A stretch of DNA of 64,000 nt from Candidatus Omnitrophota bacterium (GTDB taxonomy: Bacteria > Omnitrophota > Gorgyraeia > Zapsychrales > Zapsychraceae): contig JAGOSC010000005.1 of NCBI GenBank assembly GCA_018062515.1, forward strand, positions 880 to 64,879. Direction: 5' to 3'. Shown piece by piece: positions 20,454 to 53,908 of this stretch (its first letter is position 1; every line of letters starts with the position of its first letter). A program made the position numbers and the translations under genes. The notes beneath the pieces are model-generated. The model ran no database searches. It saw only the letters and a program-made list of their open reading frames with translations, and was not told the origin of the DNA.

Positions 20454-21782
20454 ATGACCGTGGATTTCCAAAAAATTAAAAAGTATTTAACAGACGATAT
20501 CTGGCGCATCCGTAAAAGTCAATTGAGTGGACGGCATTCGATGTGGATCAATCAATTACGGATCATGATGTTGGCTGTCCGCCGATTTGACGAGAACGAT
20601 TGCCAGCTGCGCGCCTCGGCCTTGACATTTTATTCTTTGTTATCCATTGTTCCCGTCGTGGCCATGGCCTTTGGCATCGCGAAAGGTTTTGGATTTGAAA
20701 AACTTTTGGAAACACAGCTGTATGAAAAGTTGAGAGGACAAGAAGAAGCTGTTCGTCAAATTCTGGCCTTTTCAAATTCACTTTTACAGAATACACAAGG
20801 AGGAGTCATTGCCGGAGTGGGCGTCGCCATCCTTTTCTATACAGTCATTAAAGTGTTGGGGAATATTGAAAATTCTTTCAACATTATTTGGGGTGTTAAA
20901 AAAGCCCGCTCATTCAGCCGTAAATTCAGCGACTATATGTCGATTATGATGATTTGTCCGATTCTGTTGATCATGTCGAGCAGTTTAACGGTGTTCATGA
21001 CGAGTCAAGTCACCCTCATCGTGGCAAAACTATCTTTTTTAGGGCCCGTCGGGGAAATCCTTTTATTATGTCTTAAAATTTTACCCTTTTGTGTGATGTG
21101 GGCTGTTTTTACTTTTATCTATATATTTTTGCCCAATACAAAAGTTAATTTTAAAGCTGGCCTGGTCGGAGGAATTATTGGAGGAACATTCTACCAACTC
21201 GGGCAATGGATTTACATTAAATTTCAAGTGGGTGTAGCCAGTTATGGCGCGATTTACGGAAGTTTTGCGGCTCTGCCGCTTTTTTTAATTTGGTTACAAA
21301 CCAGTTGGCTCATCGTTTTATTCGGGGCTGAACTTTCTTTTGCGGAACAAAATGTGGATACATATGAATTTGAACCCGACAGCTTAAAAGCCAGCCGGAA
21401 GTTCAAACAAATTGTCGCATTAGGCATAGCTCAAGTATCCATCAAAAGATTTTATCAAGCTGAAGTTCCTTTAACAGCCAATCAAATCGCCCAATCCCTT
21501 GAACTGCCCATACGCTTAGCGAATCAAGTTATTTTTGAAATGACTGAAGCGGGAATTCTCGCCGAGGTAAAATTCAATGAAGGAAAAATTGTCGCCTATC
21601 AGCCCGCCCGGGATATACATCAATTGACTATCCATCAAGTTTTACGTTTGATGGAAGAGAATGGACTATCCAATATTCCCTATGCGGAAACAGCGGAGAT
21701 TAAAAAGATCAAAGAATCCTTGGAATCTTTGTCGAGAAAAATCCAAAGCGCCCCGGAAAATCAGCTCCTCAAAGATATTTAG
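20454..21782 (+). CDS. yihY: YihY/BrkB (virulence factor BrkB) family inner-membrane protein with C-terminal soluble extension
   Basis: LRASALTFYSLLSIVPVVAMAFGIAKGFG is the YihY core, followed by six TM segments and a ~130-aa hydrophilic tail. Confidence 0.7.
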   Translation: MTVDFQKIKKYLTDDIWRIRKSQLSGRHSMWINQLRIMMLAVRRFDENDCQLRASALTFYSLLSIVPVVAMAFGIAKGFGFEKLLETQLYEKLRGQEEAVRQILAFSNSLLQNTQGGVIAGVGVAILFYTVIKVLGNIENSFNIIWGVKKARSFSRKFSDYMSIMMICPILLIMSSSLTVFMTSQVTLIVAKLSFLGPVGEILLLCLKILPFCVMWAVFTFIYIFLPNTKVNFKAGLVGGIIGGTFYQLGQWIYIKFQVGVASYGAIYGSFAALPLFLIWLQTSWLIVLFGAELSFAEQNVDTYEFEPDSLKASRKFKQIVALGIAQVSIKRFYQAEVPLTANQIAQSLELPIRLANQVIFEMTEAGILAEVKFNEGKIVAYQPARDIHQLTIHQVLRLMEENGLSNIPYAETAEIKKIKESLESLSRKIQSAPENQLLKDI

Positions 21783-22018: not shown

Positions 22019-25000
22019 ATGATGATTTTTAAAAGAAATAAAAGAAATTTAACCCGAAAAATAACTTCCACCTTTGTCTTATTTTCATTTATTTTCTCAT
22101 CAATACTACCTCCTCAAGTCTCGGCGCAGAGCGTATTCCATTTACCTATACCTGGGACCCTGTTTAATGTTACAAATACCTTTAATCCTTTTATCATTCA
22201 AGGGCTTACTGTAGATCCGCAAAATCCTCTTCATTTCAGTTTTATTATTGACACCGGCGACACGCAAACAAACGATCCAGACGCTTTCCGCTTAGAATCT
22301 ACAAAACTAGTCAAATATTTCTTAGCATCCTTAACCGTTCCCGAAGATCAAATGTGGGTTAACCTTTCTCCGTATGAAGGCAACCGCATTATTTCGGACA
22401 CATTTGGTCAAACCGAAATGGGCCGTGACTTATTAGCTCAAGATTATATTCTCAAACAAATGTCGGCTTCTTTAACGTATTCAGAAGAAGAATTGGGTGA
22501 AAAATTTTGGCACAGGGTCCACCAACGCGCAAAAAAAGAATACGGCGTTAAAGATATTCCTTTAAATACTTTTAATAAAGTATGGATCATTCCTCAGAAG
22601 GCAACCGTTTATGAACATGACGGCAGCGCGTATGTCGTCAATAGCCGGTTAAAAGTAATGATGGAAGAAGATTACTTAGCCTTAAACAAAAATATCGGTG
22701 AGCAAGCTTTTGGTATGAATAATGTCAAGCAAGATGAGGCGGAATCCACGAGTAAAGTTACTTCCGCCATCATTAAAGAAATTATTATCCCGGAACTCGA
22801 GAAAGAAGTGAATGAAGGCAGCCATTTTGCCAATTTGCGTCAAATTTATCAGTCGATGATTTTAGCGACCTGGTACAAAGTGAATTTAAAAGAATCACTT
22901 TTAGGAAAAGTTTATATTGATCAAAATAAAGTCCAAGGAATTGATTTAAACGACAAAAACGCGAATCAGAAAATTTATGAACAATATTTAGCCGCCTTTA
23001 AAAAAGGTGTTTACAACTATATTAAGGAAGACTACGATTCAGCCACTCATAAGTCAACACCTCGTCAATATTTCGCCGGCGGATTTGTTCCAAAAACCGA
23101 AGATAATGCGACTTTAGCAGAATTGATCACACGAGAGAAGACCACTCGTTTAGCCGCTACGGATCAGGCAGCTTTAACTCCGAAAGGAAACCAGATTCGA
23201 GCTGATTTCGCTTTATTAGAAGACTTAACCGATGAAGATGCTCCAAAGGTACAAAAACCGATTGAAAAAATTGAAGACGCGCAGATAGCTGTGGACCCTA
23301 ATTGGGTTGAGGACTATTTGGAAAATCTTTTCCCTGAAAACAGCTTTCCTAAACCAGTCAAACAAGAACCAGTCATTATCAGCAAAGAAAGAAAAGAATT
23401 AGAAGACGAATTAATCGCCAATCGTTCTCAATTCTCGGGCTCTAGAATAAATCGGAATATTAAGGAAAAAACAGGGCTTGACGTTCCCGAGGACACTGTC
23501 GATTATTTCGTCGAGCATAGTGGAACCCTCCCTGGATTAAATCACCGTGCTGACCGTTCCCAGGTTATAGGGCAACTTATCCGCAATCATCGTCCTTATG
23601 AAATCTCTAAATTATTTGCCTTATCAGAATCCAAAAATTTTGAAAGAAAATATTATCCTGCCTGGATCCAAGCTTTATCAAAAATATTTACTTTTTTGAA
23701 AGATAAAAATTCAACCATTAATACAGAATTAACCGTTCAAGTCAATTTAGACGGAATTCTTTTAATTAAAGACGGCTCGGGAGAAGAACTCAAGGCGTTT
23801 CAGAAATTGGATCAATTGCACACGGAAAAAGCTTCCGTCGGTGCACTGGCCCTTCAAATTGTCAAATTATTAACCCATGATTACGACGGTTTGGAACTCA
23901 CCAACACTAAAGAATTGTCAGATGATTTAGTATCCATCTTTAATATTTTCGGAATCAAGCCGACGGTGATTAATGATGCGTGGATGCAAACTGTCCTGGG
24001 ATACGGAGATTCTTCATTAAATCTTCAAGCTCTAAAAGAAGGCGTTGAAGTAACTGAAGCTGATGTCGACACTTATCTTTTCCGTCTGGACACAGAAAAA
24101 AGTTTAGCTCGTCAAGCCGGAGAGACTGTATATCTTTCTACGCGCTCAGAAGCCGTCGCTGAAATGATTAAAGAAAATAAATATGATTCTGCTCTTTTAG
24201 CCTCCATCGATGAAAAGGCTTTAACACCGGAAATTCTTACTGCTTTTGGCGGAAATGTAACGGCCGCACAAACGGTCGTGGCCGAGCGTCTTGAGGCTAT
24301 GCGCGTCGCTGATCCGAATGCCACCGTCGAGCAAGCTGTCGCCCGTTTAGCTTGGGAATATAAGCCGCGCGATATTCAAAACGTTTTTCCTGGAGACAAC
24401 TGGAAATTTATGTTTTTGGCCGCCAAAGCCGGCATGAAAGCTCCGATTCTTTTATTAGACTTGGAAGACGCAGTTGCGACAACTCGTAAAGAAATTGCCC
24501 GCGGTGTTATCGTACAATTGATCCGGGCTTTTAAAGGTGAAGGATTAACACAAGATGAATTTGATTTCTTGCAGAAGAACGCGCTTCAGGCTGATGATGA
24601 AAAATATCCGATGACTAGTTTCTTTACACAAAGTCTTGTCGACGGAAAAACTGTTTATACGTTAAATCCTGAAAATCAATTCCATAAAGATCAAATGGTT
24701 CTTTTCCGCCCGAATAATTTAAGAACAAAGTGGTCGGCAGGGGATTATTCTCAAGTTTTTCGTAAAGTCGGTCATTTGGTAGACGGTATTTATATGCCTA
24801 AAGTAGAAGGCCCAGAAGATATCAAAATCGGCGCGTCTATTTTACGCGCCATTCAGAAAGAACAAAACTGGGTCGTTGGTCGTCACAAAATTTTTGTTTT
24901 AACCGAACTTCCCGGCGCTGTTTTGACCGCTGAAAATATTTTAAAAATAGCTCCTGAAGTTGAAGAAGTTCAATTAGGAGTCGTCGATTACACCGCAGCG

Positions 25001-28000
25001 ACGGGTGGAAAAAATCAAGTTCAAATCGAACAATTTCCATTTATGCGTTATGCCTTATTACGCTTGGTTGAAGCCGCTAATAATATAGGGAAATCCGCCG
25101 GTTTAGGTATTACCGTTCAATTTACTCCAGAAGCAACAGCCGAGGATACAGTCAAGGCTATTAATATTGGCCTTCATCGCAAATGGAGCGTTCATCCAGC
25201 GCATTTGAAAGGCATGGAATCATTCATCGGAAAATTCCCAAAGATTGTCCGAAAAGATATTCAATATGATGAACTACAAGGATTTGATTTGGTACAGCTA
25301 GATCAATACGCTAGTGAAAGCCGTCCAATTTTAGCTCCTAAAGTTTTAACACCTAAAGATGTGGTTTTATCCAGAGCTGTGGTCACTGTTTCATCCGGAA
25401 ATATTGATGGGCTTAAAAAAGCTCTGGATTCAAATGCTGATACTATTATTTTGGATTTCGGGAAAAAAGAAAATTTGTCTGAAATTAAAAAAATATTAGT
25501 TCAGGCTAAAACAACAAAGAGTATTCTTGTTGTCGATGAGCTTGATTCCCTACAATCAATTAAACAAATTGTAACTGAGTTAAATGGATATTTTCAAGGA
25601 TTTAACCTGAATAACATACAGAATGCATCAACAGTAAGAGATGTGGATGGATTGTTATCAGAAGCAGAAAGTGATTTGGGATTAAACGCAGGCAGCTTAA
25701 AAATTGCCGTCAGCTTTAATGACCCGCAAGTGGTCGAGGAGCAATCCCGCTATCTCGGCACCGATCCAGCTAAAGCTCTTTTGTATTCCAGTCAACGCCT
25801 CAGCTGGGCCATCTTGAATTTGCCTACCATGCCGACTGAAGATTTAGATGATCCGGAAACGAGAGGATACAATTATTATCATTCTTTATTTATTGCCATG
25901 ACCGCTCATGCCGAAGTCGATTCCATCGACGGTTATAGCGCGGATGAGAATTTAACAGAACAAGTTGCGACCTCAGCCATTTGGGGATTTCAAGGAAAAC
26001 TAGCTAACTTGAATCAAGTTGATGAAATTACTGAAGCCATGAGCCCGCAGCGAGCTGGAATTATGCCAGAATTTTCTACTCCAGAGGAACGTAAAGCTTG
26101 GTTAGCTACTGCCGAAGGAAAAATTTATGTAGCACGTTGGAAAAATTCATTAGAACGAGATTTGGAACTGATGGATCTGTATGCCGAAGCGGATCAAGAA
26201 CGGCAATTAGGTGCGGTAGGTTATAAGGATCCTTTAACCGGCGCTATTGAAATCGTCGACGCTGCTTCAGCTCGAATTCCATTCCGACAATTAGAAAAAG
26301 CTTTAAAGACAAATCAATTAACCGATACGGAAAAAGTTCGATATGCAAAATCACGAGAAAAATTACTTTTAGCCATGCGTCCAGGCGGACGAGAAGGCAG
26401 CGGTGAAAAAGTTTTTGCCGGGCAAAAAATTACAGCTCCGGCCATTGTGATGCGTCCTTGGATGGTTAATGCGTTTGCTAAAGATGGCGATCAAAACCGT
26501 TATCATTTAGATGAAGCTTATGCCAACGCCTCAAAATTTAAAGGATTAGTTGCTCATGGATTATTGACGGTAACTAAGGCTTTAAGTTCTTTAAAAGCTC
26601 AATTACCGGCTTATAAAATTGAAGAAGTCGACGACGCTAAATTCTTAGCTCCTGTACGCTTTAATGATACGATTACCCCGGTCATTGATGTTACGAGTGT
26701 CGACAATGAAAAAGCCAATGTAAAAATTAGTGTAATCAATCAAGACGGAAAAACAGTCAGTGAAATCAAAGTTTTATTAATAGAAAGCACTGATTCTCAA
26801 ATCATTCCAAAAATTAATAATGATTCTTTAAAATCAGCAGAAAAGGTGCCGGCTTCTATTCCGGCCGTCATTTACGATTTTACTGATCCACAAAGTCCTC
26901 GAGAACAAACGTTCAAGCAGGAAATCACATCCAGTTATTTAGAAAATGTTCAAGGATCTAATTTGATTACAAGCCGGGATTTATTAAGTCAATTAGCTGC
27001 CTTTAAAATGATGGCCGGTACTTCCGCCAATGCCGTCCCAGGCCACATATTATTGAATGCAACAAATGTAAAATTCGGAGCTGAAATTCATTTAGGTGAT
27101 GTATTGACCGCCAAAGCTACTGTTCCTGCAGCTGATCAAATTAAATTGACTAAAGACAATCTTCCTAAAGTTCCAGTCACGATTGAAATCACGAATCAAA
27201 ATGGAGAAATGGTTTTAAAAGGACAAGTATTAAAACTCATGGAACCGGGTAAAGATCGAGCGATGCTGGCCAAAAAACCATACCTTCTGCCAAGAGGAAA
27301 AATTGTTACATCGCCGGATGAACTTCCAACACATATGGAAGCATATGTAGTCCGACGCGGTGAGCATGGTGACCCAATTGATGCGTTTAAAAAATCCATT
27401 CAACCCGTTCCCGATGTGGGCGATTATGAAGTCCTTGTCCAAGTTATGGCTGGAGGATTAAATTTTAATGGAACATGGGCCCTTCAAGGTCTTCCCATTT
27501 CTCCATTTACTTATCCTTTGAATAAATTCCACGATGAACAACGCTTAGGTAGTGATGCTTCAGGCATTGTTGTGGCCGTTGGCAAACATGTCACACAATA
27601 TAAAATTGGTGATCAGGTTGTTATGGCTACCGGTGAAGATGACCGCGCTGAAAAAGATCCTGATCATGGCGATACCATGCAAAAACGAACGTTTGTTATC
27701 ACCGGGTATGAAACTCCGGATGGAACGTTCGGTCAATTTGTCGCTTTGGATGAACGTCAAGTACATCCGAAAGAGGCAAATATGACTTGGGAACAAGCCG
27801 CCAGTTATCATTTAGTCGCCGACACAGCTTGGCGAGATATGAAATACAAACTGGGTGTTAAAAAGGGAGATACTGTATTAATCTGGGGGGCATCAACAGG
27901 AGTAGGAGCTTTTAATGTCCAGATCGCTAAATATTTAGGAGCCAAGAATATTGTGGCGGTTGTTTCCAGTGCTTCAAGAGCGGAACAAGCCAGAAAATTC

Positions 28001-29941
28001 GGGGCCACTCAAGTGATTAATCGAACTGAACTTCCTAAAATTTTGGGATACAGTGATGCTGAAATTTGGGGTGAACTCTCTAACAATCCCCAAAAGCAGC
28101 AAAAACAAATTGAAATGTTAAATAAGTTCAGAGAATATTTTCTTTCTCTAACGGGTGGTGAATTAGCCGATGCCGTTGCGGAACAAATCGGCCAAACAAC
28201 TTATCCAATTAGTCAATATTTAGCTAAAGATTCCGGAAAAGTCACTCATTTTGCCGGAACATTTGGTTTCAAATTTACCTTTATGGGAAAAGATTTACCG
28301 TTGGATGAGAATACAAAAAAGCAAAAAACGCCACTTCAAATGTTAGAAGAAGCTGGTGTACGCGACGCTAAACGAGTGCTGATATATGGTGCTGATCAAC
28401 TTTCTAAAGAAATTTTTGAGGAAGTTAAAAAATACAGCACTAATATTGCTTTCATCGTTAAAAGCCAAGAAGAACAAAATACAGTCGAAAACTGGGATTT
28501 AGAAAAGACATATATCAAAGGTATTGTAGATTTAAATCCGATTTCTTTTCCTGAAGATATGCCTACACCTCCTCATCCAGACATCCCGGCAGATAAACAG
28601 GCAAAAAATCTTGAAGAATTTAATGAGTATCGTATCAAAGTACTGGATCCAATCCGAGGATCGGTTGTAAAAGCTTTAGGCGGTCAGCCCGACTTAATTG
28701 TTGAAAGAGCGGGGAACAAAAATACTTTGGATATCAGCGTATTTGTCGTGCGTCCTCATGGCGTCGTAACATATGTTGAATCAACAAAAGGAAAACGTTT
28801 AGTCTTTGATGCCCGATTTATTTGGATGTTCCAAAAGCAAATTTATCCTTGGGTTCTTGGGACTCATTATGCGAACCACACACAAACCAAGGAATTAAAT
28901 GATTTAGTTTTAAAAGGCATCATAAGCGTACCTGAACCCGAAGTATTTTCTTGGGATGAATTACCCTTAGCCCAGCAGAAAATGTATGAAAATAAATTAA
29001 TCGCAACCAAAGCGTCTGTTCTTATCGGAGCTGTTAAACCAGGACTGAAAGGTCTGCCCGAAGAAACTGCGGCAGAACTGCCCATAAAAAACGAAGAGGG
29101 ATTGCTTCCGGCTTTCATGATTACCTCAAAAATCATAGAACCCACCATTTCTGATAATCAAATCAATCTTTATAAGAATCCGGCCATTGATCTATCTGAG
29201 AAATTCGCAATATTAGCTGCTAAATCAAAATTTAAAGACCCAAATAGCGCCCTAGGAATGTATGCCTTGGAAACAAAGGCATTTATACCTGCCATTGTTG
29301 AAAAAGTTTTCGGGAACACGGCGGAATTAGGGGAATTTAAATTAAAGGGGTTTACATCATTTGCTCCTAGCGGATTAGATGCTAATGATCAAATTCGAAC
29401 GACATTGCAAGTAAGCCGCAATTTTAAGATCGACGGGGATGATGTATACCTTAATGCCCGTATATCTTTGGATAAATTTTTTGTCGATTCCGGAAAATGG
29501 AAAGAGTTGTTGGTCGGAAATCAAATACTAAAAATGCCAATTAACGACTTAAACTCTTTAGGTTTTTACTTACCGTCTGAAAAAATTGACTCCGCTTTGA
29601 TTGGAGAAAAAAACGATGTTAGCCTGAATAATAATATCGCTGAATCCAAAAAAGAATACGGCGGTATTGACTTTAATTCAAAATTTTTGAATCTTCAGAT
29701 CAAGCGTGATGGACGAGGAATTCCATTGCCGGTGAATCAGCAGCCATTGATGAACATTCACATCAATGGATTTTATCCGGTTCTCATTGAAACAATGCCG
29801 ATTAATTTACCATTGATTCTCGGTTTAGAGACGGAAGAAGAAGATTCGAATTCAAGAACTCAACAAAGTTCACTTGATCCTTTGCATAAACAAGAAGACA
29901 TACGTATCGAAGATTTAGAAACAGCCAGCATACTAAACTAA
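22019..29941 (+). CDS. giant secreted mosaic protein A (2640 aa): signal peptide + shared N-module + CitE-like lyase + MaoC double-hotdog + crotonyl-CoA carboxylase/reductase-like MDR + shared C-module
   Basis: RBS GAGAGGAAA. Signal peptide ...SILPPQVSA|QS. N-module 22127-23085. CitE signature ILLLDLEDAV at ~24445. Hotdog VAHGLLTV at ~26545. CCR-like VLVQVMAGGLNFNGTWALQG at ~27430 with Rossmann LIWGASTGVGAFNVQIAKYLGA. C-module YGGIDFNSKFLNLQIKRDGRGIPLPVNQQP at 29655-29941. Confidence 0.85.
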   Translation: MMIFKRNKRNLTRKITSTFVLFSFIFSSILPPQVSAQSVFHLPIPGTLFNVTNTFNPFIIQGLTVDPQNPLHFSFIIDTGDTQTNDPDAFRLESTKLVKYFLASLTVPEDQMWVNLSPYEGNRIISDTFGQTEMGRDLLAQDYILKQMSASLTYSEEELGEKFWHRVHQRAKKEYGVKDIPLNTFNKVWIIPQKATVYEHDGSAYVVNSRLKVMMEEDYLALNKNIGEQAFGMNNVKQDEAESTSKVTSAIIKEIIIPELEKEVNEGSHFANLRQIYQSMILATWYKVNLKESLLGKVYIDQNKVQGIDLNDKNANQKIYEQYLAAFKKGVYNYIKEDYDSATHKSTPRQYFAGGFVPKTEDNATLAELITREKTTRLAATDQAALTPKGNQIRADFALLEDLTDEDAPKVQKPIEKIEDAQIAVDPNWVEDYLENLFPENSFPKPVKQEPVIISKERKELEDELIANRSQFSGSRINRNIKEKTGLDVPEDTVDYFVEHSGTLPGLNHRADRSQVIGQLIRNHRPYEISKLFALSESKNFERKYYPAWIQALSKIFTFLKDKNSTINTELTVQVNLDGILLIKDGSGEELKAFQKLDQLHTEKASVGALALQIVKLLTHDYDGLELTNTKELSDDLVSIFNIFGIKPTVINDAWMQTVLGYGDSSLNLQALKEGVEVTEADVDTYLFRLDTEKSLARQAGETVYLSTRSEAVAEMIKENKYDSALLASIDEKALTPEILTAFGGNVTAAQTVVAERLEAMRVADPNATVEQAVARLAWEYKPRDIQNVFPGDNWKFMFLAAKAGMKAPILLLDLEDAVATTRKEIARGVIVQLIRAFKGEGLTQDEFDFLQKNALQADDEKYPMTSFFTQSLVDGKTVYTLNPENQFHKDQMVLFRPNNLRTKWSAGDYSQVFRKVGHLVDGIYMPKVEGPEDIKIGASILRAIQKEQNWVVGRHKIFVLTELPGAVLTAENILKIAPEVEEVQLGVVDYTAATGGKNQVQIEQFPFMRYALLRLVEAANNIGKSAGLGITVQFTPEATAEDTVKAINIGLHRKWSVHPAHLKGMESFIGKFPKIVRKDIQYDELQGFDLVQLDQYASESRPILAPKVLTPKDVVLSRAVVTVSSGNIDGLKKALDSNADTIILDFGKKENLSEIKKILVQAKTTKSILVVDELDSLQSIKQIVTELNGYFQGFNLNNIQNASTVRDVDGLLSEAESDLGLNAGSLKIAVSFNDPQVVEEQSRYLGTDPAKALLYSSQRLSWAILNLPTMPTEDLDDPETRGYNYYHSLFIAMTAHAEVDSIDGYSADENLTEQVATSAIWGFQGKLANLNQVDEITEAMSPQRAGIMPEFSTPEERKAWLATAEGKIYVARWKNSLERDLELMDLYAEADQERQLGAVGYKDPLTGAIEIVDAASARIPFRQLEKALKTNQLTDTEKVRYAKSREKLLLAMRPGGREGSGEKVFAGQKITAPAIVMRPWMVNAFAKDGDQNRYHLDEAYANASKFKGLVAHGLLTVTKALSSLKAQLPAYKIEEVDDAKFLAPVRFNDTITPVIDVTSVDNEKANVKISVINQDGKTVSEIKVLLIESTDSQIIPKINNDSLKSAEKVPASIPAVIYDFTDPQSPREQTFKQEITSSYLENVQGSNLITSRDLLSQLAAFKMMAGTSANAVPGHILLNATNVKFGAEIHLGDVLTAKATVPAADQIKLTKDNLPKVPVTIEITNQNGEMVLKGQVLKLMEPGKDRAMLAKKPYLLPRGKIVTSPDELPTHMEAYVVRRGEHGDPIDAFKKSIQPVPDVGDYEVLVQVMAGGLNFNGTWALQGLPISPFTYPLNKFHDEQRLGSDASGIVVAVGKHVTQYKIGDQVVMATGEDDRAEKDPDHGDTMQKRTFVITGYETPDGTFGQFVALDERQVHPKEANMTWEQAASYHLVADTAWRDMKYKLGVKKGDTVLIWGASTGVGAFNVQIAKYLGAKNIVAVVSSASRAEQARKFGATQVINRTELPKILGYSDAEIWGELSNNPQKQQKQIEMLNKFREYFLSLTGGELADAVAEQIGQTTYPISQYLAKDSGKVTHFAGTFGFKFTFMGKDLPLDENTKKQKTPLQMLEEAGVRDAKRVLIYGADQLSKEIFEEVKKYSTNIAFIVKSQEEQNTVENWDLEKTYIKGIVDLNPISFPEDMPTPPHPDIPADKQAKNLEEFNEYRIKVLDPIRGSVVKALGGQPDLIVERAGNKNTLDISVFVVRPHGVVTYVESTKGKRLVFDARFIWMFQKQIYPWVLGTHYANHTQTKELNDLVLKGIISVPEPEVFSWDELPLAQQKMYENKLIATKASVLIGAVKPGLKGLPEETAAELPIKNEEGLLPAFMITSKIIEPTISDNQINLYKNPAIDLSEKFAILAAKSKFKDPNSALGMYALETKAFIPAIVEKVFGNTAELGEFKLKGFTSFAPSGLDANDQIRTTLQVSRNFKIDGDDVYLNARISLDKFFVDSGKWKELLVGNQILKMPINDLNSLGFYLPSEKIDSALIGEKNDVSLNNNIAESKKEYGGIDFNSKFLNLQIKRDGRGIPLPVNQQPLMNIHINGFYPVLIETMPINLPLILGLETEEEDSNSRTQQSSLDPLHKQEDIRIEDLETASILN

Positions 29942-29957: not shown

Positions 29958-32900
29958 GTGATTAATCAATTTAAGAAGTTTCAGCCACGATTTGCTTATA
30001 AATTATTCTGTGCGGTCATCAATGTTGCGTTTATTTCAACTTCGGTTCTCCCACCGAGTTATGCTCAGGTTTTACCAACCGCATTTGCATTACCGCAACC
30101 CGGGGCAATGGTTAACCTAACGGAGAAGTTTATGCCGGTCATCGTGCGCGGCATAACCATTCATCCTGAAAATCCGCTTATGTTTGATTTTATGGTGGAT
30201 CAAGGCGACACAACTCTTGATGCGACCGCCCTCAAAAACGAATCGTTAAAACTAATTAAATACTTTCTCGCTTCCTTGACCATTCCAGAAAAGGAAATGT
30301 GGGTCAATCTTTCTCCGACGGAAAAAGATAGAATTATTCCTGATTCGTTTGGAGAAACCGAAATGGGACGGGATCTCTTAGCCCAAGATTATGTTCTCAA
30401 ACAGTTGACGGCCTCTTTGATGTATCCGGAAAAAGAATTAGGCCAAAAATTCTGGCAGCGCGTCCGTGAACGGGCGAAATCCGAATATGGTCTAACAGAT
30501 ATTCCGATGGATACATTTAATAAGGTATGGATTGTGCCTAAATCAGCGGTTGTTTTTGAAGGTAAAAATTCTGCCTTTGTCGTTGAGAGTGAGTTGGACG
30601 TCATGCTTGAAGAAGAGTATTCCCAGTTAGATGGTGTCATCCAGGCTCAAGGTTCCTCGTCGATAAAAAGTAGTTCAGCAAAAGAAATTATTAAAGAAGT
30701 CATTTTACCGGAAATCAAAAAAGAAGTTAACACGGGAGAGACTTTTGCGAATTTGCGTCAGATTTATAATTCCATGATCTTGGCTTCCTGGTATAAAGAT
30801 AATTTAAAAAAGAGTCTTTTAGGACAAGTATACGTCGATCAGAATAAAATACGCGGCATTGATGTTGAGGATAAAAATGTCAAACTAAAGATTTACGACC
30901 AATATATGAAGGCCTTTAAAAAAGGTGTTTACAACTATATAAGAGAAGATTATGACTCAGCATCTAAGAAAATGGTTCCGAGAAGATATTTTTCCGGTGG
31001 GGAAACATTTACAAATTTAAAAATCACTCGCCAGGATATAGATGATTCCGGGATGCTAAGCGCTTCACAAAAAGATGCAATGAATCCGGGTAATACCGAC
31101 GTCATTGTGACAGTAGCGTTAGCTGACTTTGGAAGCAATGTCGATACGACAACTTTAAAACAAGCCGCAAAAGAACTCAATGAAGATCAATCCATGGTTG
31201 GCGAAAATCCTGAGAATAAAAAGGGAATAACCGGAGGATTTTTAACGGACGGCAATTTGGTTGTATATGATAATCCTAAAATTGTCCTTTATCCGGAAAA
31301 TGTTAAAGATCATCCTGATGTCGACACAATGTATCAAATGTTTGAATCCATCTTGGGTCAAAATTCTGAAATTGTACAATCAGTGGGTGAAAGGATTGAC
31401 ACGAAAGAAATTCACGTCGAAGAACCATATGAAGTTACCGTTAACGGGAAAAATGAATCACGAGAAAGTTTAATTAAACAATTAGGCGGTTTAGGTCTTT
31501 TAGGCATGTCGGTACCGGCTGAATATCGAACCGTTGAACTCGGTGGTGATGGTAAAAAGGCCTTCCCTAAAATTGTTAAATCATTGGCGGATAAATGGGC
31601 ATGGTATGGGAACGCGTCTATTGGATCGCTGGTGCGTGTTCATGGCGGCGTGTCTACATTTCCAATTTTAATTTACGGAACGGAAGAACAAAAGAAAAAA
31701 TATTTGCCAAAATTAGCCTCGGGAGAAATGATCGGCGCTTATGCGTTGACGGAATCGAATCATGGGTCTGATACTCTTAATCAGGAAACTGTATTTGATA
31801 CCACCGGGGTTATCGTCGAGCAAGATGGCAAAAAGTATGTAAAAATAAATGGTTCAAAACAATATATTACCAATACACGTTTTGCGGATATTTTCACCGT
31901 GTTTGTGTCTGTCCAAAATCCTGAATGGAATAAGGATCAACCAGACGCAGCCCCACAATGGTTAAAAAGCGTTTTTGTCGTTGAGAAGAAAGATTCCACA
32001 CCGGATACTTTTTCATTTGGACCCGAAATGGAAAAAATTGGGCTTCCCGGATCTGCGACCCAAGAAATATTTTTTAATGATTTACTGATACCGATGGACA
32101 ACCTTTTAGGCAAATTAGGCCAAGGCGATAAAATCGGCATGAGTATTCTTAATTATGGACGATTAGCGATTGGCGCCGGATCTTTAGGCGGAAGCCAACG
32201 TATTCTCGATGAGAGTATACGCTGGATCCTTACTCGTCAGCAATTCGGACATCCCTTGGCCGACTTTAGCGCTGTTCAAACCAATATCGCCGAAATGGAA
32301 GCGAATATTTATGCGATGGAAGCCTTGGTTTATGCCGTCAGCGCGTTATTAGATAACAATGAAGCACCGGGGTTAGAAGCATCAATAGCCAAGGTCTGGG
32401 GGTCCAACACATTTCAGAAAATTGCCCAGATGGGTGTCAATCTGCGTGATGATGAAGGTTTTCTCAAATCAACGCATGTTAACCGCATACTCGGTGATTC
32501 CGTTGTCATGTCTATTTTTGAAGGGGCGAATGAAGTTCTTTCGTCACAGGTCATCGCCGCTTTATCCATGAAATACTTAGACAAAAAAGATAAATTATTA
32601 GGCAGCTGGACAATCCCTCAAGATAGCCCTGTTTACGACGAGAGTTTGCATATAAAACAGGCTGCCGAAACAATTATGCAAGCCAAGGATAAATTGATTA
32701 AAACCTACGGAACGACGTCGGTCTTGCGGGAGCGCGGGAAAGAACATCTTCAAGAATATTTTAATGCATTTGGATTAATGATCGCCGATCTGTACGTATT
32801 AGTGAATACGCTTAATCGAACACATCATTTGCTTTTGTCAAATCCTCAATCACAACATGAAAGGAATTTAGCTAAATTGGTTGTTGAAGAAGGTATTCGT

Positions 32901-35141
32901 CGAATCGAAAGCAATGCCGGGCTCATCTTGACTCAGGATGAAATTAAACTAGTTAATCTGGGTACCGAAAGCCCTGTGGAGCTCAAAATACAAGTAGCAA
33001 AACATATTTTAGAGAATAATAAATTTATGACGTGGACCCCTGCGACAGCCACCGACGAAGAAATAGTGAGTACGGAAGGCGCAAAACCGGTATCAACATT
33101 CCTCTTTAGTGGTCAAAAAGGTGAATACCCGGAATCAGCTTTACCATTTATGGAAGATAATGAGCAGTTTGCTGAAGGCCCGATGTACGAAGGTCTTAAA
33201 GAAATTTTCGCGGATATGGTCGTTTCTAAACAGATTAATAAAAATTTGGATGAAGGCCATTTAAAACTCACGCAGATTTGGGACGAACTGAAAGAATTAG
33301 GCCTTTTTGATCCGGAATACTCTACCATTGTAAAAAATTGGGTGAATCAATTTGCGGCATATGCCAGCCCGTCGCTAGGACTTACTTTAGCCGTTCATAA
33401 CGGCGTAGGTTCTATGCCCATTAAACTTTTTGGAAGTGATGCGCAGAAGGAAAAATATTTACCGCTATTTAACTCTGGTGAAAATATCGCGGCCATGGCC
33501 ATCACGGAAAAAGAGCATAACTCAGATATTTATTCTGACAATACGGTATTAGAAACGACCGCCACGCCCATCACCGACGAGAATGGAACGATTGTTTCTT
33601 ACCAAATCAAGGGTTCAAAAGATTATGTGATTAATGCGAGTGACAACAGCATATATATTATCTTAGCTTCGGTTTTGAATGAATCACAAGGAAAACAAAA
33701 ATCTTTATTTATCGTCGAGCATAACGATACTGGAAAAATTTCGGTCACAGAACAAAAAAATAAAATGGGTTTGAGATCAGCTATGACCGCGGTTGTTGAT
33801 TTTAATATCACCGTTCCGGCAGACCGCATGATCGGTGAGGCGGATCAAAGCGATATGATCAACCAAAACATTCAAGGTTATACGTGGACTGCTTTGGGTT
33901 CCATTTATTTAGGCGCCAGTGACATTGCGTTTAAAGAAACTTTAAAGTACGTAACTCAGCGCAAACAATTTTCCTACAAAAAAGATAATGTTTTAAAAAG
34001 AAAATTCATCGCGGATTTCGGTGCCGTACAAATATCCTTAGCCAACTCAGAAGCCATGTTATACGCCTTGGAATCGATGGTCTATGCTGTCAATGCAGAA
34101 TTTGATAGCGGCCGTAATCCCGTTTTTGAATCAGCTATTTTGAAAGTGATCGGGACAAACACATTCCAGGATATTGCCCGTCAAGGTGTGCAAAAACACG
34201 GCGGCATGGGTTTCGGGCGGGAAACGGAAGTCGCTAAATATTTCGAAGATTCCATCGCACTCGCGCAGATTGGCGGATCAAATAATGTCCTATTAGGTGT
34301 TGTTATCGGCCCCTTGGGATTAACGGCTTTAAAAGAAAATTCCGGCCTGAGCATTTTGGAAAACTGGAATATTCCGGAAGGCCCGTTGACGGATGATGTC
34401 CTTAGAATAAAAGTAGCCGCTAAAACTATTTTGAATATGGTGAGTGAATTTGAAAAACGCGGCATTACGAAAAATAACCCTTCCGCCAGTATATATTTTC
34501 ACCTGCTTGGAGAAATGTTTGTCCAACTCTATGTGATGACCACGACGGTGAACCGCACTCAACATCGTTTAGATAAGGGCATGGATTCTGCGCATGAAAT
34601 TGGTTTAACAAAAACCATTGTCATTGACGGGATACAAAAAATACAAAAATTAGCGCAAGAATTACGTATTTCTGCGCCATCCACGCCATCCCTAAACAGT
34701 GATCAATTGGTGGCCTTGAAAACAGAAATCGCGGAATCAACATTAGAACGCACGACCGATTGGGAAAAACCACAAACAGAAAAAGATATAGCCATGGTGG
34801 CAGAAACCGAAGATCCATACTTGATGAATAAAGCAGATCTCAATACACCGTCGACAAAAGATAAGGTAGGGGGTATTAATTTAGACCGTTCCTTACTGAA
34901 TATGCAAATCCTCCGGGATGAGGGCGGTGTTCCTCTTCCGCTCGACGATCAACCGCTTTTGGAAATGAATATCGAAGGGTTTATTCCGGTGATCATTCAA
35001 ATTACACCGGCTCTAAATGTGCCTTTATTGTTGGGGTTAGCCGGTGAAAAGAAAGATTCAAATTCAAACAGCCAACGCGGTTCGCTAGACCCTTTGCAAA
35101 AAAAAGAGCATATGCTTGTAGAATATGAGGAACGCAGCTAA
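29958..35141 (+). CDS. giant secreted mosaic protein B (1727 aa): signal peptide + shared N-module + two acyl-CoA dehydrogenase units + shared C-module
   Basis: GTG start 16 nt after A. Signal ...VLPPSYA|QV. ACAD signatures GAYALTESNHGSD (~31740) and AAMAITEKEHNSD (~33490), each followed by a ~150-aa helical extension. C-module GGINLDRSLLNMQILRDEGGVPLPLDDQP at 34870-35141. Confidence 0.85.
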   Translation: MINQFKKFQPRFAYKLFCAVINVAFISTSVLPPSYAQVLPTAFALPQPGAMVNLTEKFMPVIVRGITIHPENPLMFDFMVDQGDTTLDATALKNESLKLIKYFLASLTIPEKEMWVNLSPTEKDRIIPDSFGETEMGRDLLAQDYVLKQLTASLMYPEKELGQKFWQRVRERAKSEYGLTDIPMDTFNKVWIVPKSAVVFEGKNSAFVVESELDVMLEEEYSQLDGVIQAQGSSSIKSSSAKEIIKEVILPEIKKEVNTGETFANLRQIYNSMILASWYKDNLKKSLLGQVYVDQNKIRGIDVEDKNVKLKIYDQYMKAFKKGVYNYIREDYDSASKKMVPRRYFSGGETFTNLKITRQDIDDSGMLSASQKDAMNPGNTDVIVTVALADFGSNVDTTTLKQAAKELNEDQSMVGENPENKKGITGGFLTDGNLVVYDNPKIVLYPENVKDHPDVDTMYQMFESILGQNSEIVQSVGERIDTKEIHVEEPYEVTVNGKNESRESLIKQLGGLGLLGMSVPAEYRTVELGGDGKKAFPKIVKSLADKWAWYGNASIGSLVRVHGGVSTFPILIYGTEEQKKKYLPKLASGEMIGAYALTESNHGSDTLNQETVFDTTGVIVEQDGKKYVKINGSKQYITNTRFADIFTVFVSVQNPEWNKDQPDAAPQWLKSVFVVEKKDSTPDTFSFGPEMEKIGLPGSATQEIFFNDLLIPMDNLLGKLGQGDKIGMSILNYGRLAIGAGSLGGSQRILDESIRWILTRQQFGHPLADFSAVQTNIAEMEANIYAMEALVYAVSALLDNNEAPGLEASIAKVWGSNTFQKIAQMGVNLRDDEGFLKSTHVNRILGDSVVMSIFEGANEVLSSQVIAALSMKYLDKKDKLLGSWTIPQDSPVYDESLHIKQAAETIMQAKDKLIKTYGTTSVLRERGKEHLQEYFNAFGLMIADLYVLVNTLNRTHHLLLSNPQSQHERNLAKLVVEEGIRRIESNAGLILTQDEIKLVNLGTESPVELKIQVAKHILENNKFMTWTPATATDEEIVSTEGAKPVSTFLFSGQKGEYPESALPFMEDNEQFAEGPMYEGLKEIFADMVVSKQINKNLDEGHLKLTQIWDELKELGLFDPEYSTIVKNWVNQFAAYASPSLGLTLAVHNGVGSMPIKLFGSDAQKEKYLPLFNSGENIAAMAITEKEHNSDIYSDNTVLETTATPITDENGTIVSYQIKGSKDYVINASDNSIYIILASVLNESQGKQKSLFIVEHNDTGKISVTEQKNKMGLRSAMTAVVDFNITVPADRMIGEADQSDMINQNIQGYTWTALGSIYLGASDIAFKETLKYVTQRKQFSYKKDNVLKRKFIADFGAVQISLANSEAMLYALESMVYAVNAEFDSGRNPVFESAILKVIGTNTFQDIARQGVQKHGGMGFGRETEVAKYFEDSIALAQIGGSNNVLLGVVIGPLGLTALKENSGLSILENWNIPEGPLTDDVLRIKVAAKTILNMVSEFEKRGITKNNPSASIYFHLLGEMFVQLYVMTTTVNRTQHRLDKGMDSAHEIGLTKTIVIDGIQKIQKLAQELRISAPSTPSLNSDQLVALKTEIAESTLERTTDWEKPQTEKDIAMVAETEDPYLMNKADLNTPSTKDKVGGINLDRSLLNMQILRDEGGVPLPLDDQPLLEMNIEGFIPVIIQITPALNVPLLLGLAGEKKDSNSNSQRGSLDPLQKKEHMLVEYEERS

Positions 35142-38100
35142 GTGATTATTCAGTTTAAAAAATTCCAGTTAAAATTTACCTATAAATTTCTTTGTACGGT
35201 TATCAATATTGCGTTTATCTCGACTTGTGTTCTACCGCCGAGCTATGCTCAGGTTTTATCTTTACCCCAACCTGGAACCATGCTGAATGTAAGCCCGGTT
35301 TATACTCCGCCCATGATCAAAGGACTGACCATTGATCAAGAAAACCCGCTGCATTTTCAATTTATTATTGATACTGGAAATGAACAATATAAAGATAATG
35401 ATCAGCTTCGAGAAGAATCAACACGCTTAATTAAATATTTCCTTGCTTCGTTAACAGTTCCTGAAAATGAAATGTGGGTGAACCTTTCACCCCATGAAAA
35501 AGACCGCATTATTCCCGACGGGTTCGGCCAAACCGAAATGGGCCGTGACCTTTTAGCCCAGGATTATATTTTAAAACAACTCACCGCGTCATTGATTTAT
35601 CCTGAAAAAGAATTAGGGGCTGAGTTTTGGAAAAAAGTGCATGACCGCGCTTGGAAAGAATTTAAAACAAAAGAAATTCCATTGGATACATTTAATAAGG
35701 TTTGGATTGTTCCGGAAAAAGCAGTGATTTATGAACATGAAAGAAGCGCTTATGTTCTGGAAAGTCATTTAAAGGTCATGTTGGAAGAAGATTATCAAGC
35801 ACTTATATCCAATACTTCGTCGACATCCGCGGACAATCAAAAATTAAAAGATGATAATCGGCAACTGACAGCGTCGATCATGAAAGAAATTATTATTCCG
35901 GAAATCGAACGGGAAGTTAATGAAGGTAAAAATTTCACAAATCTACGCCAAATTTACCAGTCGATGATTTTAGCGACGTGGTACAAGATGAACTTAAAAG
36001 AGTCATTACTTGGACAAATTTACGTCGATCAGAATAAACTCATAGGGATTGATCTCGACGATAAGAATGTTAAAGACAAAATTTACGCGCAGTATATAGA
36101 AGCCTTTAAAAAAGGTGTTTATAACTATATCAAAGAAGATTATGATCCTGACCAGCAAAAGACCGTTCCTCGTCAATACATTTCGGGCGGTTTCTCGACG
36201 GTAGGAAAAGATAACGCAACGCTCGTTGATCTCGTTGGCCGAGAAATCATTAAGTCCAGCGCCGGCTATGTGAGCGCGGATCAATATAAACGTATTTCCA
36301 AAGGACTTAAACCCAGCGGTGATCAATTCAGAACAGATGTTCAATTATTAGAAAACGGAAATAATGGAATTATTAACGCCGATCAATCCATGCTGGTTAA
36401 GATCGACGATGCTTTACAAAAAAATCCTTCTCAAAAAGTTCATACGGTTAAAGGATACACACCGGCTGGAAATCCAATTGAAGATGTTCTTACATATCAG
36501 GATATCAGCGACCAATCCAATCAATTTGCCCATGTATTAAAAAATGCGGGGATTGAAAAAGGCGACCGTGTGGCTGTTATGTCGCCGGTCTCAGGTTTGG
36601 AAATGATCGCGTCTTTGGGAATTTGGAAAGCCGGGGCAGTACGTGTACCGTTTAAAACCCAATGGACGTCGAATGAAATTAAAAAATATTTGACCCAAAC
36701 CACGCCTGAAGCGATGGTTATTCTAAATGTGTATTACGATCAACATTTATTGTCAATTTTAAATGAATTTAAAGATTTAAAAGTTTATATCATTTCTTCC
36801 GGCGAAACTATTTCTTCAACACCTCACGTCATGACTTTTCAAAATAGTTTAATCAATCAAACAACGGATTTCTTAAATATTTCTTCCGATCCGAGGGATT
36901 TAGTCCAATTGGCTATTTCCACCGGAACAACCGGTGAATCAAAAATTGTAAAGCAAACACAAGAAAACTTTTATTTCAGTACGCAAGAGTATAGTGAGTG
37001 GCTTGATGATGCTCCTCAAGGCCCTGTCGTCAGCACTTTACCGCCGGGAACGTACGGAAGCCATAGTATTTTAGGAACTGTTCTGCGAGGACGTCCGTTA
37101 TATATCGTTCCCCGTTTACCCAAAAATCAAACGACCGATGAATATACCCAGACATTATCGGAAACATTGAAGAGAACAAACGCGAAAATTTTATTCGGCG
37201 TTCCAACGCAATTTCAGGCTTTAGCCATGACGGGAGAAAAATTCCCCGGCCTTATTGGTTTAAGCCGAGGAGCCGCGTTAAGAGATGTAAAACAATTATT
37301 TGAGTCGGTGACCGGAGGACGGGTTATCGAAGGTTATGGATTGACAGAAGGAACCAGTTCAGTCACCAATCCGATTAATAGAGATAAGCCGGGTACCGTC
37401 GGAATTCCGTCAAAAGATACGACATTTAAAGTCATTAATCCATCCACGCAAAAAGAACTTCCCATTGGTGAAGAAGGTGAATTAGTGTTAAAAGGCCCGC
37501 AGGTTATGGCCGGATATTGGGAAGATCCTGTGGGCACTAAAGCCGCTTTTACAGAAGATGGATTTTTAAGGACCGGCGATTTGGGCTCCATCGACAAAGA
37601 TGGTTATATAAAAATCACCGGCCGCTTAAAAGACATTATTATTTCCGGCGGTGATAATGTCATTCCGTCGGAGGTAGAAAAAATTATTAAAACCAACGCC
37701 GCTATCGAAGAAGTTACCGTCGTCGGTATAAGTGATCCTGGCCGTTTTCCTGATGATCCGGCATTTGCTGAGCTCGTTGAACATTGGGGGGAAGTTGTTG
37801 TCGCGTTTGTCGTCCCGAAAAAGGGCATGAATACTTTAAATTTAGAGCCATCCATACGAGAATTTGCCAAAAAGAATTTGGCTGCTTATAAAGTCCCCAA
37901 AAAAGTTGTTGTCCTCAATAAACTGCCTCTGCTAGGAGACCTTTTTAAAATTGACCGTCAACAACTCATCCGAGGCGACAATGACAATGCTGTTTTAGTT
38001 ATTCCTTCAGCCATCAAGAATATAGAAAATATAAAAGCCAAATTAGTGTTAAATTTTATGATAAATGAGACTTTAAGAAATGGTTTAATTTCCCAAATTG

Positions 38101-53814: not shown

Positions 53815-53908
53815 TACCAAAGATCGTGATAGATTCTGTGTTGACGATGTGTACAATATCAATTATATTATTTACACATATCCACGGTCTAAACGCTTAA
53901 AAAAATTC

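Follow-up and report, generated by a model that had tools for sequence, protein, structure and literature searches.

Conserved terminal domains shared by many otherwise different exported proteins are known from several bacterial systems. In two-partner secretion (TPS; type Vb), TpsA proteins such as FHA and CdiA carry a Sec signal, often extended, followed by a conserved N-terminal TPS domain of ~250–300 amino acids (aa) that forms a right-handed β-helix; the proteins are large and cysteine-poor, their many cargos are adhesins or toxins, and TpsB is usually encoded next to them. The giant, cysteine-poor adhesins LapA and SiiE, substrates of type I secretion, are retained at the surface by an N-terminal module and are acidic in character, with the secretion signal located within the last ~60 residues. 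In Bacteroidota, substrates of the type IX secretion system (T9SS), which are secreted or surface-anchored, combine a Sec signal with a conserved C-terminal domain (CTD) of ~80–100 aa; each genome encodes dozens of these unrelated cargos, some of them giant. In cellulosomes, a C-terminal dockerin of ~60–70 aa puts diverse secreted enzymes on a common scaffold. From Omnitrophota themselves, "Archaeovorins" have been described: proteins of >30,000 aa with many predicted transmembrane helices, an N-terminal C39 or S8 peptidase, and a repertoire of HEAT, GT5/starch synthase, PGI, PGM, PPDK, NUDIX, radical SAM, and HATPase_c domains, predicted to be extracellular, although the authors themselves were doubtful (10.1101/2023.11.21.568195). 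Here, we describe a stretch of 64,000 nucleotides (nt), called the window, from a Candidatus Omnitrophota bacterium (assembly GCA_018062515.1, contig JAGOSC010000005.1, positions 880 to 64,879 of the forward strand), in which four giant genes, A to D, encode proteins that begin with one head module, end with one short element, and carry different enzyme domains in between.

The four open reading frames (ORFs) are adjacent on the + strand, head to tail, and encode proteins of 2640 (A), 1727 (B), 3472 (C), and 2173 aa (D). In each, a head module of ~315 aa stands directly behind a Sec-type leader of 31–36 aa. The first ~355 residues are 56–59% identical in pairwise comparison, with 150+ invariant columns, and when the window was translated in all six frames and searched with a hidden Markov model (HMM) of the four copies, A–D were the only matches (E 1e-208 to 1e-222). 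A preliminary description of the window had proposed such a shared N-terminal module; identity and HMM bear this out, and every conserved block it quoted was recovered (LPxPG, NPLxFxF..DxGD, KYFLASLTxPE..MWVNLSP, FGxTEMGRDLLAQDYxLKQ, NTFNKVWIxP, EVNxG..F..LRQIY.SMILA.WYK, GVYNYIxEDYD, and YFxGG). Its coordinates delimit the mature module, with 22127 in A corresponding to Q37 after VSA and the starts in B, C, and D differing by ≤6 nt, and the cleavage contexts that it read (VSA/QS, SYA/QV, and SLA/QS, the slash marking the putative cut) are correct.

The description overlooked two further shared properties. Alignment of the cargo parts of 43 complete homologues revealed a common C-terminal element of ~57 aa, with the consensus GGIDLN..LDLQIKRDG.GVPLP...Q......I.GF.PVIIN.TP..NLPLLLG, which in all of A–D is followed by a mostly acidic tail of 30–35 aa. 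In addition, the mature parts of A–D contain no cysteine in 9,868 residues, where ~88 would be expected from the other ORFs of the window (Poisson P ~5e-39). The features of the four genes are as follows.

22019–29941, +, ORF A (ORF listing)
22019–22126, +, A leader, 36 aa, ending PPQVSA/Q (VSA/QS), with a K/R-rich n-region, an uncharged h/c region, a PP helix breaker, A at −1, and V at −3
22127–23085, +, A N-terminal module, mature Q37–G355, predicted α/β (alignment, HMM, structure model)
24650–25093, +, A cargo, HpcH/HpaI lyase (Pfam E 1.6e-15)
26420–26719, +, A cargo, MaoC hydratase (Pfam E 3.1e-11)
27422–28255, +, A cargo, ADH_N/ADH_zinc_N reductase-like domain, cysteine-free (Pfam E 8.5e-17)
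29660–29833, +, A C-terminal element, GGIDFN...LQIKRDGRGIPLP...INGFYPVLIETMPINLPLILG (alignment, profile)
29834–29941, +, A acidic tail, 35 aa, ending in ASILN, plus stop codon
29958–35141, +, ORF B (ORF listing)
29958–30065, +, B leader, 36 aa, GTG start, ending PPSYA/Q; C18 is the only cysteine of B
30066–31001, +, B N-terminal module (alignment, HMM)
31440–32561 and 33357–34673, +, B cargo, two acyl-CoA dehydrogenase/oxidase-like units (Pfam Acyl-CoA_dh_1 5.8e-55 in two stretches, ACAD9-ACADV_C, ACOX_C_alpha1)
34869–35045, +, B C-terminal element
35046–35141, +, B tail plus stop codon
35142–45560, +, ORF C (ORF listing)
35142–35249, +, C leader, 36 aa, GTG start, ending PPSYA/Q; C18 and C29 are the only cysteines of C
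35250–36197, +, C N-terminal module (alignment, HMM)
36486–37931, +, C cargo, AMP-binding acyl-CoA ligase, AMP-forming (Pfam 2.3e-54)
38826–39959, +, C cargo, acyl-CoA dehydrogenase (Pfam ~1e-22)
40608–42137, +, C cargo, methylmalonyl-CoA mutase (Pfam 1.7e-147)
43701–44033, +, C cargo, B12-binding domain with intact DxHxxG (Pfam 1.6e-22)
45300–45470, +, C C-terminal element
45471–45560, +, C acidic tail, ending in EDLSYLN, plus stop codon
45567–52088, +, ORF D (ORF listing)
45567–45659, +, D leader, 31 aa, ending PPSLA/Q; C18 is the only cysteine of D
45660–46592, +, D N-terminal module (alignment, HMM)
47469–48227 and 48792–49079, +, D cargo, carboxyltransferase (ACCA, Pfam 2.4e-36; Carboxyl_trans, Pfam 4.8e-05)
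51075–51317, +, D cargo, cyclic-nucleotide-binding domain (Pfam 1.7e-12)
51816–51989, +, D C-terminal element
51990–52088, +, D tail plus stop codon
22127–29938 (A), 30066–35138 (B), 35250–45557 (C), and 45660–52085 (D), +, mature spans without cysteine

With spacings of 16, 0, and 6 nt, the genes form one tightly packed operon of linked acyl-CoA enzyme functions, and their cargos appear to make up one acyl-CoA, propionate, or methylmalonyl-CoA pathway set. Directly before the C-terminal element of C, 44958–45270 gives a non-significant NCBIfam match to methylmalonyl-CoA epimerase (E 0.086), which, if real, would complete a set of mutase, epimerase, and carboxyltransferase across C and D.

The family extends far beyond this operon. 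With a word-seeded profile search, the module was recognized in at least 1,471 proteins, nearly all of the named ones from metagenome-assembled genomes of Candidatus Omnitrophota, and a HMMER search of 1.84 billion cluster representatives returned 8,249 clusters (50% identity), 6,505 of them at E ≤1e-30. In the 150 best matches listed, the module lies at residues ~1–390, in nearly all as a single stretch; the longest family member among the matches listed has 5,358 aa. Among GTDB species representatives, at least 555 loci were confirmed, and the best 80 all fall in Omnitrophota assemblies, some of which are labeled "uncultured Planctomycetales". Up to eight of these 80 loci occur in a single genome, and module genes often stand in tandem. 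The few matches labeled as other phyla are probably short, mis-binned contigs. Two odd labels were also seen, a precomputed Pfam match to ribosomal protein S9 in P0001 (432 aa) and the name "RecJ exonuclease, partial" for P0044, and these probably arose on short contigs, where genes were merged in calling or annotations were carried over. A repeat or assembly artifact was rejected in view of the protein identity of only 56–59%, the differing cargos, and the thousands of homologues in independent assemblies. The uncharacterized, leader-borne module of the preliminary description was seen correctly, but it is one half of a two-ended architecture and occurs on thousands of proteins across the phylum rather than on four cargos.

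The two ends are closely coupled. In the window and 79 loci, head and C-terminal element occur together in 57 ORFs, every one of the 10 ORFs with the element alone is broken by a locus edge or a frameshift, and the element is always single-copy, 0–48 aa from the C-terminus. An independent set of full-length representatives contains it in 121 of 139 members (87%), with a median distance of 32 aa to the C-terminus. No model of Pfam (full-length A–D) or NCBIfam (last 200 aa of A–D and of the natural minimal member P0031, E ≤1) covers the element, a profile search for other contexts returned only short unannotated fragments at contig ends, and the element has no internal duplication. Many tails end loosely in [LI]S.LN-COOH, with an internal [DE][LV][SG][FY] ... 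P.D/NRK patch (e.g., A 29834–29938 and C 45471–45557; P0203, P0316, P0199, and P0253), and the acidic tails of several homologues hold a C-x(3-9)-C pair (P0215, P0249, P0262, P0296, P0244, and P0326). As judged from these motifs, the tail end or the cysteine pair could be a recognition or processing site.

The head, too, stands apart from known families, as the preliminary description had supposed. Searches of Pfam (E ≤10), NCBIfam (E ≤1), and, by profile, all PDB sequences gave nothing meaningful. An AlphaFold2 (AF2) model built on a 97-sequence alignment (mean predicted local distance difference test [pLDDT] 79.1, predicted TM-score 0.78) shows a leader helix, an α/β domain with two long β-hairpins and about eight helices, and a disordered linker past residue ~330. 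With this model, neither Foldseek against the PDB (E ≥0.14, TM about 0.1) nor a comparison with BFVD (E ≥0.064) gave a fold match, and thus the clear match to a characterized enzyme fold that would have spoken against the preliminary description was found in neither sequence nor fold searches. Foldseek matches to ClyA-type pore-forming toxins (probability ≤0.05, TM about 0.1) and to the PX domain were treated as noise. Thirty-four positions are invariant among the 97 head sequences, many of them aromatic or polar, the polar ones including N115, T132, K146, Q147, E263, N265, R274, Q275, and K287; cysteine is missing from the domain, as is any invariant His, Ser, or Asp triad in the same alignment. 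The modeled head thus appears to define a new family, unannotated in Pfam and NCBIfam, whose predicted fold has no known relative. In two homologues (L064 9781–13200 and L066 5941–13227), the module was matched in two pieces, with an insertion at profile positions ~222–243, indicating a variable loop that accepts large insertions.

In a comparison of 228 members, the leader measures 37 aa at the median and has an n-region with a median net charge of +4, after which comes an uncharged stretch of about 16–23 residues. Pro is found at −6 in 129 members and at −5 in 89, and in 88% of members position −3 is A, S, V, G, or T. At least 90% of 97 aligned sequences have Ala at −1, and the same holds for Gln at +1; of 260 sequences, 237 contain an A/Q dipeptide in the leader region. 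This is the pattern of Sec and signal peptidase I, namely a positive n-region, an h-region, small residues at −3 and −1, and a helix breaker near −6, and it suggests a Sec signal peptide cut at A/Q by signal peptidase I. Leaders of a similar, ordinary kind are found on other window proteins that are likely exported (13209, a serpin at 53849, and 61172). The serpin gene (53849–55177, Pfam E 2.8e-127) encodes a bacterial serpin with a Sec-type leader that holds two of its three cysteines. By eye, the leaders of B and C (29958–30065 and 35142–35249; VINQFKKFQPRFAYKLFCAVINVAFISTSVLPPSYA vs. VIIQFKKFQLKFTYKFLCTVINIAFISTCVLPPSYA) are far more alike than their modules, which suggests that the 5′ ends were recently duplicated or underwent gene conversion.

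Cysteine exclusion sets in at the same point of the chain, as the following counts show.

Other 34 ORFs of the window: 92 cysteines in 10,296 residues (0.89%)
99 module ORFs from other genomes, mature part: 43 in 147,991 (0.029%)
224 neighboring ORFs: 922 in 84,246 (1.09%)
139 representatives, mature part: 94 in 251,206 (0.037%)
Leaders of 228 members: 162 in 8,614 (1.88%)

The leaders of the 139 representatives alone contain 107 cysteines, and the content falls from 1.88% to 0.037% exactly at the A/Q site. Together with the statistics of the 228 leaders, this step marks the hydrophobic N-terminus as a cleavable-type Sec leader rather than an internal helix, in agreement with the preliminary description. 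Of 99 residual cysteines, 28 lie within 70 residues of the C-terminus, where they often form C-x(3-9)-C pairs within the acidic tail. Autotransporter and TPS passengers typically avoid cysteine, too, as do substrates of type I secretion and proteins of S-layers. In bacteria that lack Dsb or other dedicated disulfide machinery, cysteine exclusion is a documented signature of exported proteins (PMC2823432). An exclusion as extreme as that seen here suggests unfolded transit of a narrow channel, or a thiol-hostile space, rather than simple residence in the periplasm.

The cargos found elsewhere in the family include PGI (Pfam 3.4e-198), PGK, PEPCK, transketolase, PGM, UDPGP, NDK, PDH-E1, starch synthase, and GH116, as well as HEAT repeats, response regulators, HATPase_c, Glu/Leu dehydrogenase, ROK, and HAD domains and many stretches without a Pfam match. 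The window also encodes untagged housekeeping enzymes with normal cysteine content, and the tag is thus selective rather than a property of the whole proteome. The residual cysteines were examined in 550-aa segments, each with only the listed cysteine or cysteines, in which Pfam confirmed the families. They lie in a radical SAM CxxxCxxC motif accompanied by a B12-binding domain (P0262, aa 658–665; Radical_SAM 1.6e-24), the GAPDH motif SCTTN with the usual second cysteine substituted (P0279, aa 2526, and P0295, aa 3220), the UDP-glucose dehydrogenase motif GGYCIPKD (P0270, aa 1076; in P0305 by motif alone), the isocitrate lyase motif KKCGHM (P0209, aa 765, E 8e-47; in P0271 by motif alone), and the motif CGEHG of a PEP-utilizing, PPDK-type enzyme (P0267, aa 1471, E 5e-46). 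Going by the known active-site signatures of these families, we take these cysteines to be catalytic. With the catalytic cysteines kept and the others gone, selection seems to have stripped dispensable cysteines while preserving catalysis, and the cargos appear to be active enzymes; that they are dead pseudo-enzymes was rejected in view of these cysteines and of the intact B12-binding motif.

How far these proteins resemble the systems introduced above can now be stated. With TPS, LapA, the T9SS CTD, and dockerin, the comparison concerns only how the parts might work, and searches for membership came back negative. Like TpsA, the module proteins have a conserved domain behind a Sec signal, here at residues ~37–355; unlike the TPS domain, the module gives no Haemagg_act/TPS match in Pfam (E up to 10), lacks NPNL and NPNGI while conserving a single NPL, and is predicted to be α/β with many helices. 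No TpsB was found among the annotated window genes or the recurrent neighbors in 79 loci, the proteins carry an additional C-terminal element, and their cargos are metabolic enzymes. As in T9SS substrates, unrelated and sometimes giant cargos share a C-terminal element, but T9SS substrates come from a different phylum and have no conserved N-terminal head, the element here measures ~57 aa plus an acidic tail and has no confident AF2 fold, and no Por_Secre_tail type A/B or other CTD model matched (NCBIfam, last 200 aa, E ≤1; Pfam, full proteins). In contrast to LapA and SiiE, the proteins have a Sec leader, Pfam scans found no RTX family, and GGIDLN lacks the third Gly of GGxGxD. An autotransporter (type Va) ends in a β-barrel of ~250–300 aa, compared with ~57 aa here, and no Autotransporter family matched in Pfam. 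The likeness to cellulosomal enzymes is limited by the lack of a Dockerin_1 match and of a duplicated calcium-binding segment, by cargos of intracellular type rather than glycoside hydrolases, and by a head that has no counterpart there. The cargo repertoire is one that the Archaeovorins share, but A–D measure 1,727–3,472 aa and have no peptidase domain and no transmembrane-like segment besides the leader and the C-terminal element; the Archaeovorin preprint describes neither the head module nor the C-terminal element nor cysteine exclusion (10.1101/2023.11.21.568195). In the full-text literature that was searched, no description of module, element, or cysteine purge was found either.

Given the architecture, its distribution, the leader statistics, the cysteine exclusion, and the retained catalytic cysteines, we lean toward the view that the module is the head of an Omnitrophota-specific, two-ended tag on exported strings of enzymes. 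Export of the mature chains is well supported by their sequence features, albeit indirectly. Signal peptidase I would remove the ~37-aa Sec leader at the near-invariant A/Q site, and this cleavage would expose the ~315-aa α/β head; the cargo next to it would vary and comprise one or many enzyme domains, and the ~57-aa element with 0–48 aa of usually acidic tail would close the chain. The mature chain would then lie outside the cytoplasm or at least transit a compartment other than the cytoplasm. Since the two ends stay the same from one cargo to the next, both may be handles for a shared envelope machinery or scaffold: the head a putative retention or docking domain, by analogy with the TPS domain or LapA, and the tail a candidate C-terminal sorting or translocation signal, by analogy with the T9SS CTD or dockerin. 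In the window, the tag might also bring a whole acyl-CoA pathway to one location. A role in targeting, anchoring, or oligomerization, as the preliminary description suggested, fits these data and is the one that we prefer.

Several results weigh against this proposal. First, no partner machinery (Omp85/TpsB, a secretin, or a sortase-like enzyme) lies beside the window genes or recurs in the 79 loci; when 434 neighboring ORFs of these loci were clustered, only a syntenic trp operon and murA recurred. Second, an AF2 model of P0031, built on a hand-checked alignment, gave the C-terminal element a pLDDT of 46–62 and no confident contact with the head, a weak negative since only eight alignment rows spanned both ends. 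Third, a crude calibration in the same loci gave a cysteine content of 0.72% in other signal-bearing ORFs and 1.36% in cytoplasmic-type ORFs, by a classifier with visible false positives such as Rossmann-fold N-termini; by this measure the purge is ~20-fold stronger than in ordinary exported proteins, and export alone is insufficient to account for it. Finally, the cargos need ATP, NAD, CoA, FAD, B12, SAM/Fe-S, or cyclic nucleotides, cofactors that to our knowledge are not expected in the periplasm or outside the cell, and we know of no precedent for Sec-exported apo-proteins that are later loaded with B12, FAD, or an Fe-S cluster; a radical-SAM/B12 enzyme of the P0262 type is particularly puzzling as the cargo of a Sec leader. 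Such cofactor-dependent cargos conflict with the sequence signs of leaving the cytoplasm.

One explanation that addresses the conflict directly is that the proteins are effectors aimed at prey, with the tagged enzymes acting inside attached prey cells, in their cytoplasm, or on material released from them, and one or both ends serving as delivery handles. It alone reconciles a Sec leader and extreme cysteine exclusion with active ATP, NAD, CoA, B12, and SAM enzymes and signaling domains; a surface-displayed enzyme coat working on lysate could be another reconciliation. The conserved ends would be loosely comparable to those of MARTX toxins and to the TPS domain of CdiA. The explanation also fits the ultra-small, predatory or epibiotic biology of Omnitrophota (PMC10066038, PMC12583861): a passage in PMC12583861, citing Kizina 2022, reports V. 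archaeovorus as a predator of bacteria and archaea, some Omnitrophota classes have ATP/ADP translocases and Tad or type IV pili (PMC10066038), and the giant Archaeovorins, with the same domain repertoire, are predicted to be extracellular (10.1101/2023.11.21.568195). We nevertheless consider it unlikely. The Foldseek searches described above revealed neither a pore-forming nor a translocation fold, injection machinery is absent from the neighborhood in the window and the 79 loci, and the transfer of dozens of housekeeping-type enzymes of 1,000–5,000 aa into another cell would be unprecedented; moreover, predation has been reported from other Omnitrophota, not from the organism of the window.

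The cofactors would pose no problem if the leader were an uncleaved anchor and head, cargo, and tail stayed on the cytoplasmic face of the membrane, where the head would cluster pathway enzymes into a metabolon. Cofactor-dependent cargos and response-regulator, HATPase, and cNMP-binding domains would then require no extra assumptions, and A–D do form one pathway-like operon. This arrangement is improbable, however, given that an n-region charge of ~+4 before an uncharged stretch predicts an N-in/C-out orientation, the −3/−1/Pro pattern is that of a signal peptidase I site, and no second hydrophobic segment past the head would bring the chain back into the cytoplasm; cytoplasmic proteins of the same genomes, furthermore, contain 1.1–1.4% cysteine as opposed to 0.03–0.04% here, with the change exactly at the leader end.

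We give about as little credence to a self-assembling coat or filament, in which the head of one chain would bind the C-terminal element of another, in a cohesin/dockerin-like manner or by strand complementation, to form an S-layer-like lattice or fiber. One head and one tail per protein, strongly coupled, and the very strong conservation of the head, with its 34 invariant positions, are what such a design would call for, and S-layer proteins are typically cysteine-free; yet ~13% of full-length members have no tail element, neither Pfam nor NCBIfam gave a dockerin or cohesin match, and the model of P0031, a head–linker–tail protein, points the same way within the limit of its eight spanning rows. 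It is highly improbable that the head has catalytic activity of its own and attaches or releases the cargo by, for example, autoprocessing, a transpeptidase-like reaction, or isopeptide formation: its invariant polar residues and a conservation unusually high for a purely structural tag favor the idea, but no enzyme family or fold matched, and the head has neither a cysteine nor an invariant His, Ser, or Asp triad.

Around the operon, two regions deserve mention. Directly upstream, at 20454–21782, a BrkB/YihY-family membrane protein is fused to an Rrf2-like winged-helix domain (a weak match, E 5e-4); the fusion is unusual, and the protein could be a candidate regulator of the operon. At the start of the window, genes for an ORF6N/Rha-like regulator (100–699), a tyrosine integrase (930–2012), and a PilZ protein (2115–2501) coincide with the lowest GC content of the window (0.33) and may mark the edge of a mobile element.

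In the two-ended tag that we favor, head and tail each lack a family match, and the C-terminal element and the cysteine purge are newly described here; the sequences thus point to a sorting or anchoring tag made of entirely new parts, on an unprecedented class of cargo. Even without any exotic reading, the head represents a large unannotated family (8,249 clusters) with a fold that is novel as modeled, and the family offers a natural library of cysteine-free acyl-CoA dehydrogenases, B12 mutase, PGK, and PGI, plus two new portable tags. A bolder extension, which we offer tentatively and regard as doubtful, draws on the glycolysis/gluconeogenesis enzymes, GAPDH, PGK, PEPCK, PPDK, isocitrate lyase, B12 mutase, acyl-CoA dehydrogenases, and the radical-SAM enzyme among the cargos: a substantial part of the central carbon and acyl-CoA metabolism of Omnitrophota might be extracytoplasmic, carried out by cysteine-purged strings at the surface or in prey under two-ended sorting. 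If true, a whole phylum would export catalytically competent, cofactor-dependent enzymes of core metabolism, contrary to the textbook division between cytoplasm and envelope, and the extracellular location predicted for Archaeovorins, which the authors of that study doubted, would gain support. A simple sequence rule (leader, head, tail, and no cysteine) would then predict localization for thousands of unannotated proteins, and the tag would provide a molecular handle on how the ultra-small, possibly predatory Omnitrophota feed.

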